Source: Dehalococcoidia bacterium
GTDB lineage: Bacteria > Chloroflexota > Dehalococcoidia > Bin125
Assembly (NCBI GenBank): GCA_963663235.2
Contig: CAXXNO010000008.1
Location: 1 to 64,000, forward strand
Reading direction: 5' to 3'
Length of the DNA: 64,000 nucleotides
Positions 2,409-50,072 of the stretch are shown here, piece by piece. The notes under the pieces were generated by a model that saw nothing but the letters and a program-made list of their open reading frames with translations, was not told the origin of the DNA and did not search any database. How positions within the stretch are numbered: position 1 is the first letter of the stretch; every line of letters starts with the position of its first letter. The position numbers and the translations under genes are program-made.

Positions 2409-5265
2409 CCGCCATCGTCCACGGGCGCCTCGGGCTCTGTCGCCTGGGGCTCCGCCTCGCCGTCGATCGGCCCGCCGTCGATCGGCCCATCGGCCCAATG
2501 ACGCCTTCCTTGCCTCCAATGATCACCGTGATCTCGGTGATGACCTCCCCCAGGAAGTCGTCTTCGACCACCAGCCGCAGCCGGTACGGCCCTGGCGCAA
2601 GGTCGGCGGTGTTCCAGCGCGTCAGTTGGCCCGTGATCCCGCCGCTGCCGCGGATCAGCTCGATGAACTCTTCGTCCGCTGGCTCCAGCCCCGGCGCGTA
2701 CGCCACGCTCCATCCGCTGATGTCCTCGCCCGCGACCAGTCCTCGCACCACGATGGCTCCGGGCTGCAGCAGCGCGCCGTCGGGCGGGCTGCTCAGCTCG
2801 ACGGTGACGCCCGCCGCGCCCTCCGACTCGTGCCGCACGTAGATCACCTTGTTGCCCCGCAGCCACTTGATGATCTCCTCGTCGGGCTCTTCTTGGCCCT
2901 CCACGATGGGCGGGATCAGGTAGCGGCCCTCCTTGATCGCGTCCGCCGGCGTCTCTTCCGTCGCCAGGAGCAGCGTCCCGCCGTCGATCTCGACTTCAGG
3001 GCAGATGCCGTTCGCTTTGTCGGGCACGCCGTCGGCCGCGACAAACAGTTCGATCTGCGTGTTCGCGCAGGGATCCTGCGCTGCGGCGCTCTGGCGCTCC
3101 TCCGCCTTCAGGTTGCGCAACTGCGGCACGTGCACCTGCGCGGTGGTGAGACCGTCGGGCACGATGAAGGCGGTCGGCTCGACTCCCTCCAGCGCGGCGA
3201 GCATGAAATCGTGCCAGATCAGCCCCGCCGTCCGTGACGACGTTCCTCCGGTCATGGGACTGTTGTCCGCGTTGCCCACCCACACCCCGGTCACCAGGTC
3301 CGGCGTGTAGCCGACCGTCCAGAAGTCGCGCCGCACGTCGTTGCGGTTGGGGTCGCCCGCTGTGCCCGTCTTGGCGGCGGCCGGGCGGTCCAGAACCAGC
3401 GTGCTCTGCAGGCCGTAGAGGATCGAGCGCGCTTGGTTGTCGGAGAGGATGTCCGTGATCTGGTACGCCTGGGGGGCCGGGATGACCTGCCGCGCCTCCA
3501 CCCCGTCTTGCCGGAACAGCAGGCGCCCCTTCGAGTCGCGGATCTCCAGGATGGAGATCGGGTCGAGCTCGCGGTAGCCGAGCGGCAGGTCTAGAATCGT
3601 GCGCTTCCCGTGCATCACGCCGTTGTTGGCGAACACGCTGTAGGCGTACGCCAGGTCCAGCAGCGCGACCTCGCCGCCGCCCAGCGTGAGCGACGGGCCG
3701 TACTGGCTCGGGTCCCGCAGCGACGTGATCCCCATCCGGTGCGCCACATCCAGCACCTGCCCCACGCCGATCGTGTCCGCCGCGCGGAAGGCGACGATGT
3801 TGATCGAGTTCGCCAGCGCGCTGCGGATCGTCACCGGCCCCCGGTGCACGCCGTCAAAGTTCTCCGGGGAGAACGTCGTGCCGTCCGAGTCCAGGAAGTC
3901 CAGCTTCACGTCCCACAGGAGGGTGGCGGGGTTCCACTGCTCCGGGTCCTGCACGAACCCCGCGATGTACGTGATCGGCTTGAACGATGAGCCGGGCGAG
4001 TTCAGGGCTGTGACCAGGTTCACCTGCCCGTCGATGTCCTCCCGGAAAAAGTCGCGGCTCCCCACCATCGCCAGGATCTCGCCCGTCCGCGGGTCGATCG
4101 CCACCAGCGCTGCGTTGTGGGCCCCCGTCTGCTCCTCGAACGACGCCAGATCCGCGCGCAGGATCTCTTCCGCCTTGCCTTGCAGATCCAGGTCCACTGT
4201 GGTTGTGATGCGCAGCCCGCCTGCGGTCAGCAAGTCCCCACACTCTTGCCCCTCATCCCGCAGCTCGATCCGCCCTCGCTCGCACAGCGCCTCTACTTCG
4301 TCCCGCACGTGCAGGACGAAGTGCGGCGCTATGATGTCGAACTGCTGGTTGGCGAAGTTCAGCGGTTCGGATTTCGCTGCCTCCGCCTGGGCCCGGCTGA
4401 TGTATCCGTGCGTCACCATCAGGTTCAGCACGCCGCCCTGACGGTCCTTGGCCAGGCTCAGGTTGGTGAACGGGTCGAACACCGCCGGCGCTTGCGGCAG
4501 CCCCGCCAGCAGCGCCGACTCCGGCAGCGTCAGTTCGGACGGCGGCTTCCCGAAGTAGCGCTGGCTCGCTGCCCCGATCCCGTACGCCAGGTTCCCGTAG
4601 AAGATCGTGTTCAGGTACCACTCCAGGATCTGCTCTTTCGGGTACTGGCTCGTCAGCTCCACCGCCAGGATGACCTCTTTGATCTTCCGGTCCACGCTCC
4701 GCTCGCCCCGCTCTTCCGGCGCGATCAGCACGTTCTTCACCAGTTGTTGGGTGATGGAGGAGCCCCCCGACCCGCTCAGAAACTCCGCTTCGCCCAGGCC
4801 CACGTTCTCGACTGCCGCCCGCAGCAGCCCGCGCAAGTTGAAGCCGCGGTTGTCGAAGAACGTCGCGTCCTCTGTGCTCACGGTGGCGTTGACCATGTGC
4901 TGGGAAATCTCGTCGAAGCGCACGGGGGCGCGCAGTCCGGAGAAGGGGTCGGCGAACTCGAACAGCACCGTCCCGCCGTCCGGCCCCACGCGATCGAACA
5001 CCTTGCTGGTGCCCAGCACGCGCTCCGCTACCAGAATCGCGTCCGGCTCCACCAGGTCGTCCGCGTAAGACCGGTACACTCCGTAGGCCGCGCCCGCGCC
5101 GGCCCCGATCAGGATCACGCCGAGTACCAGCAGCCCGATCGGGCCCCAGATCCACGTCGGCATCCCGCGATGCCGCTGCCGCTCCCGCCGCCGCTTCTGG
5201 GCCAGCGCTCGCCTGCGCGCCAGCTTGCCGTTGCCGTTGCGCCTCGCGCGCGCGTCGCGCCTCAC
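2380..5265 (-). CDS. Class A penicillin-binding protein (transglycosylase-transpeptidase, PBP1A-like); true stop probably 2405
   Basis: EDATFF, GGSSITQQLVKN, RKIKE, GSSFKP (SxxK), SIN (SxN), KTGT motifs; N-terminal TM helix. Confidence 0.93.
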   Translation of the reverse strand: MRRDARARRNGNGKLARRRALAQKRRRERQRHRGMPTWIWGPIGLLVLGVILIGAGAGAAYGVYRSYADDLVEPDAILVAERVLGTSKVFDRVGPDGGTVLFEFADPFSGLRAPVRFDEISQHMVNATVSTEDATFFDNRGFNLRGLLRAAVENVGLGEAEFLSGSGGSSITQQLVKNVLIAPEERGERSVDRKIKEVILAVELTSQYPKEQILEWYLNTIFYGNLAYGIGAASQRYFGKPPSELTLPESALLAGLPQAPAVFDPFTNLSLAKDRQGGVLNLMVTHGYISRAQAEAAKSEPLNFANQQFDIIAPHFVLHVRDEVEALCERGRIELRDEGQECGDLLTAGGLRITTTVDLDLQGKAEEILRADLASFEEQTGAHNAALVAIDPRTGEILAMVGSRDFFREDIDGQVNLVTALNSPGSSFKPITYIAGFVQDPEQWNPATLLWDVKLDFLDSDGTTFSPENFDGVHRGPVTIRSALANSINIVAFRAADTIGVGQVLDVAHRMGITSLRDPSQYGPSLTLGGGEVALLDLAYAYSVFANNGVMHGKRTILDLPLGYRELDPISILEIRDSKGRLLFRQDGVEARQVIPAPQAYQITDILSDNQARSILYGLQSTLVLDRPAAAKTGTAGDPNRNDVRRDFWTVGYTPDLVTGVWVGNADNSPMTGGTSSRTAGLIWHDFMLAALEGVEPTAFIVPDGLTTAQVHVPQLRNLKAEERQSAAAQDPCANTQIELFVAADGVPDKANGICPEVEIDGGTLLLATEETPADAIKEGRYLIPPIVEGQEEPDEEIIKWLRGNKVIYVRHESEGAAGVTVELSSPPDGALLQPGAIVVRGLVAGEDISGWSVAYAPGLEPADEEFIELIRGSGGITGQLTRWNTADLAPGPYRLRLVVEDDFLGEVITEITVIIGGKEGVIGPMGRSTAGRSTARRSPRRQSPRRPWTMAASRARRPAP

Positions 5266-31526: not shown

Positions 31527-32732
31527 TCAAGTCACATAGTCCGCGTTGAACCGCACGTACTCCTCTGTCAGGTCGCAGCCCCAGGCCACGGCCGATTCCC
31601 CGCCCCGCCCCAGGTCCAGCCGGATGCGCACCGTGTCCCCGGAGATCGCCTTGGCTGCCTCCGACTCCGGCACGCCCGTGGTCGTGTCCTTCGCGAAGAG
31701 CAGCGTCTCCCCGATCCACAGCCGCAGCCCCCCGGGATCGAACGGCACCCCGGCGTTGCCCGCCGCCATCAGCACCCGCCCCCAGTTCGGGTCTCCTTTG
31801 CTGAGCGCGGCCTTGAGCAGCGGCGACCGCACCACGCTGCGCGCGACCCGCCGCGCTTCGTCCCAACTCGCTCCGCCCGTCACGGTGACCTCGATGAGCC
31901 GGGTGGCCCCCTCGCCGTCCCGCGCAATCGCCGTGGCCAGCTCCGTGCACACGCCCCGCAGCGCCTCGCCCAGCGCGCCCGCTGCCCTCGTGTCGCCCGC
32001 GTCGATCGCCCGCCCGCCCGCGGCGCCGTTCGCCAGCAGCACGACGGTGTCGTTGGTGGAGGTGTCCCCGTCCACTGTCACCATGTTCAGGCTGCGGTCG
32101 ACGGCGTACCGCAGTTGCTGGTCCAGCGCTTCGGCTGTCACTGGCGCGTCGGTGGTGAGGAACGCCAGCATGGTGGCCATGTCGGGGTGGATCATCCCCG
32201 CCCCTTTGGCGCAGCCCCCCACGACGTACGACACGCCGTTCGCTTCGAACCGCTCGATGGCCTCCTTGACGAAGGTGTCGGTCGTCATGATCGCCCGTGC
32301 GAAGTCGCCGCCGCCGCCGCGGCTCGGCTCGACCTTCCCGATGCCGGCCGCCACCTGCTCCATTGGCATGTAGTGCCCGATGATCCCCGTGCTGAGCACG
32401 AACACGTCCGTTTCCCCGCACCCGACCCGCGCGGCCGTCATCGCGGCCATCTGCCGGGCGTCGGCCAGCCCGCGCGCCCCGGTGGCCGCGTTGGCGTTGC
32501 CGGAGTTCACCACCACTGCTCGCAGGCGGTGGTCCGTCATGTGCTCTCGGTCCAGCACGAGCGGCGGGGCCTTGACCACATTGCTGGTGAACAGCGCGGC
32601 GGCGCTGGCCGTCTCGTCGGAGACGAGCAGCGCTAGGTCGGGCCGCCCCGATTCCTTGATCCCGGCGGTCGTGGCCCCGGCCCGATAGCCCTGCGGGGCG
32701 GTGATCGCCCCCCCGTCGGGAACGCTGCTCAC
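31527..32732 (-). CDS. argJ: Glutamate N-acetyltransferase ArgJ
   Basis: NSGNANA, KGAGMIHPDMATML, DGDTSTND, DGEGAT, DPNWGR. Confidence 0.96.
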   Translation of the reverse strand: MSSVPDGGAITAPQGYRAGATTAGIKESGRPDLALLVSDETASAAALFTSNVVKAPPLVLDREHMTDHRLRAVVVNSGNANAATGARGLADARQMAAMTAARVGCGETDVFVLSTGIIGHYMPMEQVAAGIGKVEPSRGGGGDFARAIMTTDTFVKEAIERFEANGVSYVVGGCAKGAGMIHPDMATMLAFLTTDAPVTAEALDQQLRYAVDRSLNMVTVDGDTSTNDTVVLLANGAAGGRAIDAGDTRAAGALGEALRGVCTELATAIARDGEGATRLIEVTVTGGASWDEARRVARSVVRSPLLKAALSKGDPNWGRVLMAAGNAGVPFDPGGLRLWIGETLLFAKDTTTGVPESEAAKAISGDTVRIRLDLGRGGESAVAWGCDLTEEYVRFNADYVT

Positions 32733-33766
32733 GGGTACAGGCCGATCGATGGCAGCCCCGCCGTCTCTTCGATGCCGAACATCAGGTTGAGGCACTGCAC
32801 CGCTGCGCCGGCGGCCCCTTTGACCAGGTTGTCCAGACAGCCGATCGCCACGCACCGCCCTGTGATGGCGTCGATGCTCGGGTAGACAAGGCAGGCGTTG
32901 CTGCCCACGGTTTCCTTGGTGCTGGGCGCTGCGGCGGCTACGTGCACAAACGGATGGGCCGCGTAGAACTCCTGGTACCGATCCGCCAGCGCCGCCTGTG
33001 CCGCTTCCCGCCCCTCGGGCAGCGCACCCGCACGGAACCGCGCGTGTGCGGTGGCGAGCAGTCCGCGGGTCATGGGGATCAGGTGCGGCACGAAGGTCAC
33101 GCTGGGCGCTTCGCCCTCCGCCGCCAGCGCGCTCAGCTCCTGCACGATCTCCGGCTGGTGGCGGTGCCCCTCCAGGCCGTACGCGCTCAGGTTGCCGTCC
33201 ACTTCCGAGAAGTGGCTGCTCAGTTTCACCGTCCGGCCCGCGCCGGACACGCCCGACTTCGCGTCCACCACGATATCTGGCTCGATCAGCCCGCCTGCCA
33301 CCAGCGGCGCAAGCGTCAGGATTGCGGCCGTTGGGTAGCACCCCGGCACGGCCACCAGCCGCGATTCCCGGATCGCCTCTCGATGCAGCTCCGGCAGCCC
33401 GTACGTCGCGCGATCCAGGTACTGCGGCTGGGGATGCTGGCCGTACCACTGCGCGTAGGTATCCGCGTCGTGCAGGCGGAAGTCGGCGCTGCAGTCGATC
33501 ACCGGCAGGCCGCTCGCGATATACGGGGCCAGCGTCTCCGCCGCGGCGGCGTGCGGGAGCGCCGAGACCACTACGTCCACGTCGCCGGGCTCCTCCGTGA
33601 TCGGAAGGTCCAGGGGCCACAGGTGCGGGAATACCTCCGGCAGCCGCTTCCCCGCCTCCGACCGCCCGGTCACGGACGCGACCGTTACCTCCGGATGCTC
33701 GGCCAGCAGCCGCGCCAGCTCAGCCCCCACGTACCCCGTCACGTTGAGTATGCCCGTCCGGATCAC
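32729..33766 (-). CDS. argC: N-acetyl-gamma-glutamyl-phosphate reductase
   Basis: TGYVGAEL, PGCYPTA, SGVSGAG, DNLVKGAAG. Confidence 0.96.
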   Translation of the reverse strand: MIRTGILNVTGYVGAELARLLAEHPEVTVASVTGRSEAGKRLPEVFPHLWPLDLPITEEPGDVDVVVSALPHAAAAETLAPYIASGLPVIDCSADFRLHDADTYAQWYGQHPQPQYLDRATYGLPELHREAIRESRLVAVPGCYPTAAILTLAPLVAGGLIEPDIVVDAKSGVSGAGRTVKLSSHFSEVDGNLSAYGLEGHRHQPEIVQELSALAAEGEAPSVTFVPHLIPMTRGLLATAHARFRAGALPEGREAAQAALADRYQEFYAAHPFVHVAAAAPSTKETVGSNACLVYPSIDAITGRCVAIGCLDNLVKGAAGAAVQCLNLMFGIEETAGLPSIGLYP

Positions 33767-33774
33767 GGCATGCT

Positions 33775-33807
33775 CCGTTCGTCCTGAGCCTGTCGAAGGA
33801 CGAACGG
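33775..33807. repeat. REP-like hairpin directly upstream of argC
   Basis: CCGTTCGTCCT-GAGCCTGTCGA-AGGACGAACGG. Confidence 0.85.
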
Positions 33808-33868
33808 CCTCACGTCTTGGAGGATTTCAGCCCCTCGAAGCACGCCCGCCGATGCCCTTTCGCCTACC

Positions 33869-34696
33869 CTACCCGCCCGCGCCCAACTCCGCACTCGGAC
33901 ATCGGTCCGCCAGGACACACTCCCCGCCCAGCGGCCGCTCCGCGTTGCACACCCCGCGCCCGAGGCGGCAAGCGTGACCGCACCGATCAGCGCCGTCCGC
34001 TCACGACCCCTGCCCACCACTCCCATCGAACATGAAAACACTCCGACAGCCGTCGGCCAGGACACACTCCCCGCACAGCGGCCGCCCGCCTTGCACACCC
34101 CGCGCCCGAGGCGGCAAGCGTGACCGCACCGATCAGCGCCGTCCGCTCGCGACCCTTGCCCACCACTCCCATCAAACATGAAAACACTCGGGCAGCCGTC
34201 CGCCGGGACACACTTCCCGCACAGCGGCCGCTCCGCGTTGCACACCCAGCGCCCGAGGCGGCAAGCGTGACCGCACCGATCAGCGCCGTCCGCTCACGAC
34301 CCCTGCCCGCCGCTCCCATCAAACATGAAAACACTCCGACAGCCGTCGGCCAGGACACACTCCCCGCACAGCGGCCGCTCCGCGTTGCACACCCCGCGTC
34401 CGAGGCGGCAAGCGTGACCGCACCGATCAGCGCTACCCGCTCACGACCCTTGCCCGCCGCTCCCATCAAACATGAAAACACTCGGGCAGCCGTCGGCCGG
34501 GACACACTCCCCGCACAGCGGCCGCTCCGCGTTGCACACCCCGCGCCCGAGGCGGCAAGCGTGACCGCACCGATCAGCGCCGTCCGCTTACGACCCTTGC
34601 CCGCCGCTCCCATCAAACATGAAGGCACTCGGACATTGGTCCGCCAGGACACACTCCCCGCACAGCGGCCGCCCCGCCTTGCACACTCGACGCCCG
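33869..34696 (-). repeat. Tandem array of 147-bp units containing the nth 3' end ([4Fe-4S] motif)
   Basis: Marker GAGGCGGCAAGCGTGACCGCACCGATCAGCGC at 33962, 34108, 34255, 34402, 34549. Confidence 0.95.
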
Positions 34697-35262
34697 TGCC
34701 GGATCACGGACACGTGGAACCGGTAGTACTGCCGCGACGTCATCTGCGCCTCCAACGCTTCGTGCGCCGCCGCTGCTCCCGTCTTGGCGTCGATCAGCCC
34801 CAGCCGCTGCGCCACTCGATGCACGTGCGTATCCACCGGCAGCGCCGGCCGCCCCAGCGCGAACAGCAGCACGCACGCCGCCGTCTTCGGCCCCACCCCT
34901 GGCAGCGACGTCAGCCACTCCTTCGCCTTCTTCAGCCGCATCCCCTTGAGCTGCCGCGCATCCCACTCGGGCCCCAGTCGCTCCCGCAACTCGGCCAGCA
35001 GCGCCTGCATCCGCGGCGCTTTCGTCTTGGCCAGCCCCCCGATCCGGATCGTCTCTTCCACTTCGCGCGTCGGCGCCGCCAGGACCGCGTCCCACGTGGG
35101 GTAGCGAGCGATCAGCGCTTGGTACGCGCGTCCCGAGTTGGTGTCCGAAGTGTTCTGCGACAGCAGCGTCAGCACTAGCTCCGCCACCGCGTCGCCGTGC
35201 GCCCGCCACGGCGGGATCGGTGCTTCGGCGTCCAGCCGCTCGATGATCTCCGCCGGCGTCAA
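34588..35262 (-). CDS. nth: Endonuclease III family DNA glycosylase (start uncertain)
   Basis: LLSQNTSD, HhH LPGVGPKTA, VDTHVHRV, CKAGRPLCGECVLADQC (CX6CX2CX5C). Confidence 0.9.
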   Translation of the reverse strand: MTPAEIIERLDAEAPIPPWRAHGDAVAELVLTLLSQNTSDTNSGRAYQALIARYPTWDAVLAAPTREVEETIRIGGLAKTKAPRMQALLAELRERLGPEWDARQLKGMRLKKAKEWLTSLPGVGPKTAACVLLFALGRPALPVDTHVHRVAQRLGLIDAKTGAAAAHEALEAQMTSRQYYRFHVSVIRHGRRVCKAGRPLCGECVLADQCPSAFMFDGSGGQGS

Positions 35263-47467: not shown

Positions 47468-47616
47468 CCCGTTCGTCCTGACCTGTGGTGAGCCTGTCGA
47501 ACCAGCCTGTCGAAGGATGAACGGGGCGCCGTTCCGCCCGCCTTCCCCTGACCTGTGGTGAGCCTGTCGAACCAGCCTGTCGAAGGATGAACGGGGCGCC
47601 GTTCCGCCCGCCTTCC
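47468..47616. repeat. 70-bp tandem duplication of nested REP-like unit
   Basis: 47477-47546 equals 47547-47616. Confidence 0.92.
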
Positions 47617-47617
47617 C

Positions 47618-48145
47618 CTACCCCGACCGATACCGCGCCTTCTGCGACGGCTGCAGCGCCTCCACGTCCTCGAACGCCCGATCGTAGATCTGCGGCGGCT
47701 CCCACCTGTTCAGCCCCGCGTACGTGTCGATCTGGCTGCGGTGGTGTACGTCGTGCTCCACCATCATCATCAGCAGCCGCCAGGCCGTGACCGTGCCCTC
47801 CGTGTCGATCAAGTCGATCTTGCGACGCAGCCATTCATCGGGGCTGCCCTCCAGCGCCGCCACCACCAGGTCCCCGCTCTCCTCCAGCGCCGGCAGCCAC
47901 CGCTCCTGGCTGCTCACGTCCGGCGCCTCCGGGAAGATCCACCCCTCACCCCGGTACGCGCTCACGAAGTACCCCCGCGACTGCGCCATGTGCGCCACGA
48001 TGCGGTTCACGCTCCACCCCTGCTCCCCCTCCCCCACCGCCGGCGCCCACCCCTCCGCCTCCGGCGGCAGCGCCCCCACGTCCCGCATCGCCCGACGGTT
48101 GATCGACCCGAAGTACCGCAGAAAATCCCCCATGCTCGTCAGCAT
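47618..48145 (-). CDS. DinB family protein
   Basis: WSVNRIVAHMA, EHDVHHRSQI metal-binding histidines. Confidence 0.85.
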   Translation of the reverse strand: MLTSMGDFLRYFGSINRRAMRDVGALPPEAEGWAPAVGEGEQGWSVNRIVAHMAQSRGYFVSAYRGEGWIFPEAPDVSSQERWLPALEESGDLVVAALEGSPDEWLRRKIDLIDTEGTVTAWRLLMMMVEHDVHHRSQIDTYAGLNRWEPPQIYDRAFEDVEALQPSQKARYRSG

Positions 48146-48247: not shown

Positions 48248-50072
48248 CTAAGCTTCCTCCCCGTCGTCGCTGCCTTCCTCGTCGATCCACCGGATCGCGT
48301 CGTATCCATCGACACCCCGCAGCGCCTCCTCCCACTTGCGCTCTACCCGCGCACCACCAAATCTCGTCGACGCATTCGACTGCACGTCGAAGAGGTTCGC
48401 GCCGCGCAGGTCCGCGCCCGACAAGTTCGCGCCGCGCAGGTCCGCGCCCGACAAGTTCGCGCCGCGCAGGTCTGCGCCCGACAAGTTCGCGCCGCGCAGG
48501 TCCGCGCCCGACAAGTCCGCGCCCACCAGGTCCGCGCTCGACAGGTCCGCGACCACCGGGCCCGCGCTCGACAGGTCCGCGCCCGCCAGGCCCGCGCTTG
48601 ACAGGTCCGTGCCCCCCAGGGCCGCGCCCGACAAGTCCGCTCCCCCCAGAAGCGCGGCCGACAAGTTCGCGTGCTCCAGGTGCGCGTGCGACAAGTCCGC
48701 GCCCTCTAGGTGCGAGTGCGACAAGTTCGCGCGCTCCAGACCCGCGTCCGACAAGTCCGCGTTCTCCAGGCGCGCGCCTGACAAGTCCGCCTCTCCCAGG
48801 GCCGCGCCCGACAAGTCCACCTCCCCCCGCGCCCGACAAGTCCACCTCCCCCAGGTGCGCGCCCGACAAGTTCGCGCCCTCCAGGTTCGCGCCCGACAAG
48901 TCCGCGGCCCCCAGGCGCGCGCCCGACAAGTCCGCGCCCCCCAGGTGCGCGCCCGACAAGTCCGCGCCCCCCAGGTGCGCGCCCGACAAGTTCGCGTCCA
49001 CCAGGCGCGCGCGCGACAAGTTCGCGTCGGCCAGATCCGCGTCCGACAAGTCCGCGCCCATCAGGCGCGCATCCGACAAGTCCGCGCCCATCAGGCGCGC
49101 GCCCGACAAGTCCGCGTTCCACAGGCGCGCGCCCGACAAGTTCGCGTCGGCCAGATCCGCGTCCGACAAGTCCGCGCCCCGCAGGAACGCGCCCGACAAG
49201 TCCGCCTCCGTCAGGTCGACACCGCGCAGGTTCGTGCCGTGGAGATCGAGCGCACCAGCGTCGGCAACCTCCTTCTTCGGCCGGTTCCGCTTCAATACGC
49301 CCACTACTGCCAGAAGATCGTGGCGCGTAACAGGCTCGTCTTCTTTCTCCTCCTCGGGCTCGGCCGCCTCCTCCTCGGAAGTGACTCTGTCCTCTTCGCC
49401 CTCTTCCTGCTCGGGATCAGTCTCCCTTTCTCGCTTCTCGCGCACGCGCGGCGAGTGCAGCCGCAGGTACGCCGCCAGGATGTCCATCACCGGCCGGTAG
49501 TCCTCGTCCGACTCCTGCGCGATCCGCTCCAGCGTCCGGATCGCCCCCAGCCGGATCTCGATGCGCGGCTTCCCCTCGCCGTCTTCTGCCCCCAGCTGCT
49601 CCATCGCTCGGATGAAACGGTCGGTGATCTGCCCCTGCTGCTCCACCATGATCCGGCGCCACGCGAAATACGCCCCCGCGATGCCCACTGAGAACACCAG
49701 CCCACCGGCGATGACCGCGACCAGCGTCCGCCGCGCCGAGTCCTCCCGCTCCAGACGCTCCCGCACGCTTAGGCTCGGCGTGTCGCCCACCTGCCGCTCC
49801 GGCACCTTCCACAGAACCACGAAGACAATGGCGATCAGCGCGATCGCCAGCGCAATCCGTATTTCTCCCCTACGCAGCGCCCTCTCCACCAGACCCCGCC
49901 CCGCGGTGTAGCGCCTGCTCAGCCACAGACCCAGCCGCAGCAACCTGCGGACGGCGCGGGTCTTGCGGCGGCCGATCCTGCGTCGCAGGCGGGCGAGCCT
50001 GGATCGCGTTTCCCACGCCCCCCGCCGCGCGCGGCGCCACGCCCACCCCGCCGGGCCCAAGAACTTCGCCAT
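48248..50072 (-). pseudogene. Membrane-anchored pentapeptide-repeat protein, frameshifted at ~48827
   Basis: Two TM helices, QITDRFIRAMEQLG/IRLGAIRTLERIA domain, >50 A(D/N)LSG-type repeats; one 30-bp unit shortened to 25 bp. Confidence 0.8.

Follow-up and report, generated by a model that had tools for sequence, protein, structure and literature searches.

Tandem copies of a gene end between an endonuclease III-family glycosylase gene and argC, with a probable ancestral gene end at the distal side

Integrative elements leave duplicated gene ends behind, as e14 and phage 21 do in icd of E. coli. Arrays formed by C-terminal displacement at rhs-type loci are reportedly also known, and are said to have been described by Jackson et al. 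in 2009. For toxin loci, C-terminal displacement has been proposed to proceed by homology-facilitated illegitimate recombination, in which one of the two joins is homologous and the other illegitimate, at least as outlined by Kirchberger et al. (2017, PMC5361080). Here we describe a stack of gene-end copies behind the gene of a DNA repair enzyme. Literature searches for tandem repeats or pseudogenes of nth or endonuclease III in Chloroflexi, and for displaced gene ends at housekeeping genes, returned nothing relevant.

The gene, called nth here, lies on the minus strand of the window, by which we mean the whole stretch of 64,000 nucleotides that was analysed, and all positions below are those of the window unless another locus is named; the source genome comprises 2.75 Mb in 14 contigs, with about 68% GC. 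Its product matches the Pfam models HhH-GPD (PF00730, 5e-14), HHH (PF00633, 6.2e-06) and EndIII_4Fe-2S (PF10576, 1.3e-04), and has the HhH-GPD domain with helix-hairpin-helix of the Endonuclease III / Nth family. The C-terminal CX6CX2CX5C loop of that family is also present, scoring 22.6 bits against PF10576 in the whole protein and 27.5 bits when unit 0 of the array is taken alone, and the motif is invariant in 227 relatives. The protein contains GVGPKTA and VDTHVH, which we take to hold the putative counterparts of the E. coli catalytic Lys and Asp. The NCBIfam nth equivalog model TIGR01083 gives 112 bits against a cut-off of 211.7, and the best NCBIfam model, NF053634 'monofunctional DNA glycosylase', gives 171.9 bits against a cut-off of 400; because of these sub-cut-off scores we call the gene an endonuclease III-family glycosylase, and its product may not be a canonical bifunctional endonuclease III. 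The 224-aa form with a TTG start at 35262 agrees with the database cluster members P0001, P0122 and P0127. The open reading frame that holds nth stays open up to 35700 (370 aa), and in another cluster member, P0124 (404 aa), an upstream 148-aa signal-peptide-like protein is fused to nth, which suggests a frame difference or an assembly error in that other assembly. By Pfam, the neighbours are housekeeping genes, with an FAD oxidoreductase upstream and argC, argJ, argB, argD, argG and argH downstream, and a scan of 20 ORFs revealed neither an integrase nor any other mobile gene. The features of the locus, from the gene toward argC, are as follows.

34588..35262, minus strand: nth, endonuclease III-family (HhH-GPD, [4Fe-4S]) DNA glycosylase gene; 224 aa, with TTG start and TAA stop; the final 32 codons together with the stop fall in unit 0
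34540..34686, minus strand: unit 0, the working gene end (VCKAGRPLCGECVLADQCPSAFMFDGSGGQGS, TAA) plus 48 nt with a hairpin-capable stretch; Pfam Fe-S model 27.5 bits; all motif residues occur in relatives
34393..34539, minus strand: unit 1, silent; motif Cys residues intact; E4 and P13 (each in none of 170 relatives' motifs); TGA; no Pfam match
34246..34392, minus strand: unit 2, silent; motif Cys residues intact; E4 and R18 (R18 in none of 170 relatives' motifs); TGA; partial Pfam match, 21.5 bits
34099..34245, minus strand: unit 3, silent; E4, K10 and P13; stop changed to CGA, frame continues into unit 4; no Pfam match
33953..34098, minus strand: unit 4, silent; 146 nt; 1-base deletion in codon 5 breaks the nth frame
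33869..33952, minus strand: unit 5, 61 nt of repeat (second Cys to Gly), then the apparent displaced ancestral gene end (ADRCPSAELGAGG, TAG); no Pfam match
33775..33807, no strand assigned: REP-like 33-nt perfect palindrome with an 11-bp stem, located in the interval from the ancestral nth stop to argC, outside the array
32729..33766, minus strand: argC (by Pfam), first gene of the downstream argCJBD-GH cluster

TRF places the tandem array at 33892-34686 on the minus strand, with a period of 147 bp, 5.4 copies, 92% matches, 0% indels and a score of 1338, which ranks second among the 63 tandem repeats of period at least 30 in the genome. Read along the minus strand, units 0 to 5 start at 34686, 34539, 34392, 34245, 34098 and 33952; the first 99 nt of unit 0 are the last 32 codons of nth with its TAA. 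Pairwise identity among units 0–4 is 89.8–96.6%, with unit 4 one base short at 146 nt, whereas unit 5 keeps to the repeat over its first 61 nt, with 90% identity to the units, and then diverges abruptly. At the variable sites units 0–4 are mosaics of a few site patterns, and the two-unit block of units 3 and 4 is 95% identical to that of units 1 and 2. The stop is TAA in unit 0, TGA in units 1 and 2, lost to CGA in unit 3, and TGA but out of frame in unit 4. The CX6CX2CX5C motif is intact and in frame in units 0–3 only. The array sits 102 nt upstream of argC, and in the window 821 nt separate the nth stop from argC, against about 36–130 nt in relatives; the insertion between the gene body and unit 5 accounts for 5 x 147 = 735 nt. 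The unit has no second location in its own genome, and neither there nor in 64 family genomes did we see the many dispersed copies expected of a REP- or MITE-type element. Two long ORFs in other frames, 33987-34652 (minus) and 34120-35178 (plus), match no Pfam family. A first-pass annotation, made from the sequence alone, had reported a 147-bp array at 33869..34696 with one unit of 146 bp, had called its units mosaic, and had placed it directly upstream of the arg operon; all of this stands, as do the unit translations that it gave. It had also counted the Fe-S motif as re-encoded five more times after nth: the repeats are there, but since unit 4 is frameshifted and unit 5 has its second Cys changed to Gly, the extra intact motifs are three (units 1–3), not five.

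Comparison with relatives bears on which of these gene ends is the old one. We compared 29 relatives' loci (from 24 genomes of the same family and others of the class), each of which has a single nth end, and none of which carries a repeat comparable to the array; the gene order FAD oxidoreductase - nth - argC is conserved in several genera of the family. In the closest genus (g5, about 78% protein identity) the gene ends …CVLSDRCPSAGLGRAG-TAG-GGTAG, and in the window it is unit 5 that ends …CVLADRCPSAELGAGG-TAG-GGTAG; from GACCGATG to TAGGGTAG, unit 5 and the gene end of g5 agree in 37 of 45 aligned columns. This match, and the fact that unit 5 adjoins argC as the gene end does in relatives, identify the distal partial unit as the probable original gene end in its original place. 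The suggestion of the first-pass annotation that it may be the ancestral end is thus strongly supported, and the 735 nt between unit 5 and the gene body are an apparent insertion specific to this lineage.

The inserted material itself appears confined to this locus. The part of the unit outside the Fe-S loop was found in none of 64 other family genomes, which gave nothing at E <= 1 beyond short chance matches, and the sole significant match to the unit outside its own genome is in G020, to the loop part of that genome's own nth; among 400 class genomes the non-loop part gave nine matches at E <= 0.001, all short and inside unrelated genes. No extra Fe-S motifs were seen downstream of nth in 80 metagenome loci that encode relatives, the best of which is only 70% identical. 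When the last 150 nt of the gene were searched for on the same strand within 1.5 kb downstream, real copies of the gene end were found at one of 105 loci, the window itself. We note two other repeats behind nth genes. Just behind the nth of another lineage, the metagenome locus L121 has a 62-nt period array of 5.4 copies at about 3161-3494, which shares a 19–22-nt word with the unusually long tail of that nth gene. At L021 (G007, same family) a 111/222-nt period repeat with 68–79% match lies at 2329-2752, about 250 nt downstream of nth, and blast found no gene-end copies downstream of nth there.

The stretch is present, whole or in part, in 20 public runs of nine studies. We examined Logan contigs of four runs from four studies; these contigs break inside the repeat, so that copy number per strain rests on short pieces. 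Pieces specific to a unit or junction were recovered with 0–1 differences, for example at 33778-33958, 33986-34085, 34119-34195, 34251-34333, 34369-34472, 34454-34539, 34545-34619 and 34645-34882. Array pieces occur at flank-like depth (in run X1, 11.9–14 against 12.9–15.6 for the flanks), and none of the four runs has a contig joint that skips a multiple of 147. Two runs have single-base differences of their own both inside and outside the array, and thus represent other strains. A 90% protein cluster adds five nth variants from other assemblies (P0001, P0122, P0124, P0126 and P0127), and all five, the most divergent P0126 included, end in …VCKAGRPLCGECVLAD[Q/R]CPSAFMFDGSGGQGS.

The palindrome between the array and argC behaves differently in the same contigs, where its bin has a summed depth of about 12,000–37,000 against 5–15 in its flanks across the four metagenome runs, and where it borders, on either side, on dozens of unrelated sequences. 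High depth and many unrelated neighbours indicate that it is a short element common to a great many genomes in those metagenomes; in its own genome, 12 copies of its 21-nt core are present at up to two mismatches. Elsewhere in the window, a perfect 70-nt repeat in two copies at 47477-47619 contains the same GCCTGTCGAA-type words as the palindrome, and a 30-nt period repeat with 27 copies and 82% match occupies 48398-49205.

To judge the state of the silent units we set their motifs against 170 distinct motif strings from the 227 relatives. Every motif residue of unit 0 is seen in relatives' motifs. In the silent units, E4 is found in none of the 170, P13 in none (167 have Leu), R18 in none (154 have Pro), and N2 in one; N2 and E4 are common to units 1, 2, 3 and 5, and each silent unit either has residues seen in none of the 170 or is damaged by a frameshift or by loss of its stop or of a Cys. 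The Pfam Fe-S loop model passes unit 0 and, marginally, unit 2 (21.5 bits, with a cut-off of 20.5), and finds no match in units 1, 3 and 5, so that three of the four testable silent units fail. Units 0–4 vary at 23 sites, 16 of which lie in the coding part, and seven of these 16 are synonymous in the nth frame, which is not above chance (simulation mean 4.6, P=0.12). In the Fe-S loop part, three of 12 variable sites are synonymous, as expected by chance (P=0.74), and in the 11-codon tail all four are (P=0.005, by a post-hoc split in which the events are partly linked). The many synonymous differences reported by the first-pass annotation are thus an excess in the tail on that post-hoc view, and no excess over the coding part as a whole. 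Only unit 0 is translated as the end of the gene, and the other units gather damage and exchange patches by gene conversion. From their sequences, units 1–5 look like unused, decaying copies and not working spare parts.

Beyond the coding part, all five units agree at every one of the 34 nt that follow the stop (P=0.04), a stretch capable of folding into an imperfect hairpin of roughly 13 bp. Folding of four unit strands gave z scores from -0.8 to -2.5, ordinary for the GC content, with only unit 0 below -2. No Rfam match at E <= 1 was found on 33600-34900, and a promoter and terminator scan returned no promoter-like sites and three terminator-like sites that are weak and lie inside the coding-derived part. 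The synonymous-only tail and the invariant post-stop stretch could reflect some constraint on the silent units. Persistence across the strains of four studies, at 3–10% divergence among units, is also a long survival for a repeat that could be deleted without harm, and argues against a pure relic.

We think it probable that the array arose through one replacement of the gene end followed by amplification in situ by unequal crossing-over, and that it has no present function. In an ancestor of the lineage, the end of the endonuclease III-family gene would have been replaced by a piece consisting of the Fe-S loop, a new tail (AFMFDGSGGQGS) with its stop, and about 31 nt from beyond that stop, probably attached at one side through homologous recombination within the gene and at the other through an illegitimate join, and the old end (…ADRCPSAELGAGG-TAG) would have been pushed 147 nt downstream. 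This founding event must have created the order loop - new tail - loop - old tail. Judging from the anatomy of the array, the two direct repeats of the Fe-S loop region, each roughly 80 nt, would then have mis-paired, and unequal crossing-over would have expanded the segment into five units arranged head to tail. Unit and gene remain homologous as far as about 17 nt ahead of the first Cys codon (…CCGCCTCGGGCG… against …CCGGCACGGGCG…), which makes the repeated stretch about 80 nt long and thus sufficient for recombination. The array has the properties of repeats grown by unequal crossing-over, namely an exact period, identical junctions, copies that are closer to one another than to orthologues, and derived changes shared among silent copies; the N2 and E4 common to units 1, 2, 3 and 5 would be best explained by descent from one silent copy.

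The source of the new end is a separate matter. For the 84 nt that follow CPSA, the genome itself offers only chance words of 16 nt or less, and neither the 64 family genomes nor the 400 class genomes contain a donor, which counts against import; nor is there significant likeness to the ancestral downstream sequence, since 25 of 300 shuffles score as well, and an in-situ origin thus gains no support from it either. The new tail (AFMF…) resembles the AFxF tails found in other family genera, and its G-S-TGA end with the nine bases after it matches one AFxF-tail genus at the same position in 17 of 20; these likenesses are suggestive only. With the lack of a source in the genome itself and the abrupt break in unit 5, they lead us to infer the import of a foreign gene end, by one homologous and one illegitimate join.

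Several other explanations have to be set against one displacement with amplification. The first-pass annotation had itself allowed that the repeat might be an assembly artefact made from a single copy, and an assembler that collapsed or expanded one unit is conceivable in principle, as repeats the size of a read are hard to assemble and the array pieces come from contigs that do not span it. Yet the units differ from one another at 23 sites, and unit-specific pieces appear with 0–1 differences at single-copy depth in four runs of four studies, two of them other strains; it follows that the array is not an assembly artefact, and we regard that explanation as extremely improbable. We think just as little of the proposal that the units encode GTG-initiated, 32-aa Fe-S micro-proteins. 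Units 1, 2 and 3 do have GTG-start ORFs of 32–34 aa, but none of GGAG, GAGG and AGGA, the Shine-Dalgarno-like words sought, occurs in the 22 nt before any of the five unit GTGs (argC has both AGGA and GGAG), substitutions in the loop are neutral, unit 4 is frameshifted, unit 5 is without one Cys, and the motif match is lost in three of four testable units. A silent cassette pool that swaps the Fe-S loop and tail of the glycosylase by recombination, another option of the first-pass annotation, draws on the in-frame, 49-codon, mosaic character of the units, and mosaic units do indicate that gene conversion takes place among them. An expressed copy that varies by cassette-derived patches is not what the strains present: loop and tail are identical across the five variants, save for Q/R at a single site. 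In addition, each cassette is broken or carries residues found in none of the 170 relatives' motifs, an intracellular repair enzyme has no evident need for variation, and there are no unit-to-unit contig joints in the four runs. We consider such a pool very improbable.

Other readings accept the units as gene ends and differ on how they came to be stacked. Each unit could once have been the working end, imported by a small hairpin-bearing foreign DNA that pushed older ends downstream. Each is indeed a self-contained gene end, with homology arm, tail, stop and hairpin-capable stretch; the AFxF-type tail resembles the AFSFG, AFAFE and AFFAE of other family genera, one of which matches G S TGA and nine further bases in 17 of 20; and all tail changes are synonymous. 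We nevertheless find serial import unlikely, as it needs five imports from near-identical donors (the units are 90–97% alike), of the same length and joined at the same base, while the silent units share residues that are absent or nearly so from working genes (E4 in none of 170, N2 in one), the unit is absent elsewhere in its own genome, in 64 family genomes and in 400 class genomes, and there is no recombinase gene nearby. The exact 147-nt period, the identical junctions and the shared abnormal residues argue for one displacement followed by in-situ amplification and not for repeated insertions. The third option of the first-pass annotation, a scar of repeated insertion at the gene end, is accordingly the closest of its three to the evidence as regards the scar, and departs from it as regards the repetition. 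In a bolder form of this reading, the 147 nt may constitute a complete 'gene-end replacement module' (homology arm, new tail, stop, hairpin), one of a wider, recombinase-less class that overwrites the ends of housekeeping genes and stacks the old ones, with the 34-nt post-stop stretch recognised by the mechanism and the array a product of its repeated action at nth in place of passive amplification. We hold this to be improbable; if true, a dedicated mechanism of gene-end replacement would deserve study. A purely local origin, in which the native gene end was duplicated in tandem and its tail and downstream sequence were then heavily rearranged without foreign DNA, is also doubtful to our minds. 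The Fe-S loop of the units resembles the copy in the gene itself (about 87–90%) more than that of any relative (76% or less), and the unit tail has a weak GG-rich similarity to the ancestral tail in the corresponding place; but after nt 61 of unit 5 identity falls abruptly from 90% to chance level, which marks a breakpoint and not gradual divergence, and a plain duplication would give a full last unit followed by native flank. Lastly, the five stop-plus-hairpin modules might serve as a regulatory or insulating spacer between nth and the arg operon, such as a reinforced terminator, an RNA-stability element or a protein-binding array. This would agree with the invariance of the 34 nt (P=0.04) and their possible 13-bp hairpin, with the position of the array where relatives have just 36–130 nt between nth and argC, and with its persistence across strains. 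It sits poorly with the ordinary folding energies, the lack of an Rfam match, the weakness and coding-derived position of the terminator-like sites, and the fact that relatives do without the array, and we think it quite unlikely. The invariant 34 nt, the synonymous tail and the long survival are the reasons why we leave small probabilities for the spacer or terminator reading and for the replacement module.

If one displacement with in-situ amplification is the right account, the array is a clean natural record of a gene end being overwritten without harm to the gene, with the old end still in place, and of the duplicated homology from that overwriting then seeding a minisatellite. For annotation, unit 0 holds the true C-terminus of the nth product, the 32-aa ORFs downstream of it and the other-frame ORFs of 221 and 352 aa are by-products of an in-frame repeat, and the spacer between nth and argC is inflated by 735 nt.

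The array shares with ordinary bacterial minisatellites an exact head-to-tail period, mosaic units and a higher-order duplication of two units; unlike them, its unit straddles a gene end, with a complete cofactor-binding loop, a stop and downstream flank, and its distal copy ends in a different and apparently ancestral tail. Like e14 and phage 21 in icd, it would represent inserted DNA that brought its own in-frame copy of the 3' end, left the gene intact and displaced the original end. In those elements two copies flank kilobases of DNA, whereas here five tandem copies are spaced by 84 nt in which there is no ORF of a known family and no integrase is nearby; neither an integrase nor cargo separates the duplicated ends, and the neighbours are housekeeping genes. 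With the rhs, cdiA-CT and T6SS effector arrays, at least as these are outlined in PMC5361080, the locus has in common a conserved 5' gene body that receives a new 3' end, an old 3' end retained downstream as an orphan (unit 5, apparently the orthologue of the end of nth in the closest genus), and the proposed mechanism of one homologous and one illegitimate join. Those loci, in the same outline, encode polymorphic toxins with diverse, kilobase-size orphan ends and selected immunity genes, whereas the gene in the window encodes a housekeeping repair enzyme, its unit is 147 nt with no accompanying gene, and the extra copies are near-identical, decaying products that local amplification would explain; where diverse, independent orphan ends with partner genes would be expected, the units are 90–97% alike and the array holds no further gene of a known family. 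In sum, the array would combine two known kinds of change, the displacement of a gene end and the growth of a minisatellite.
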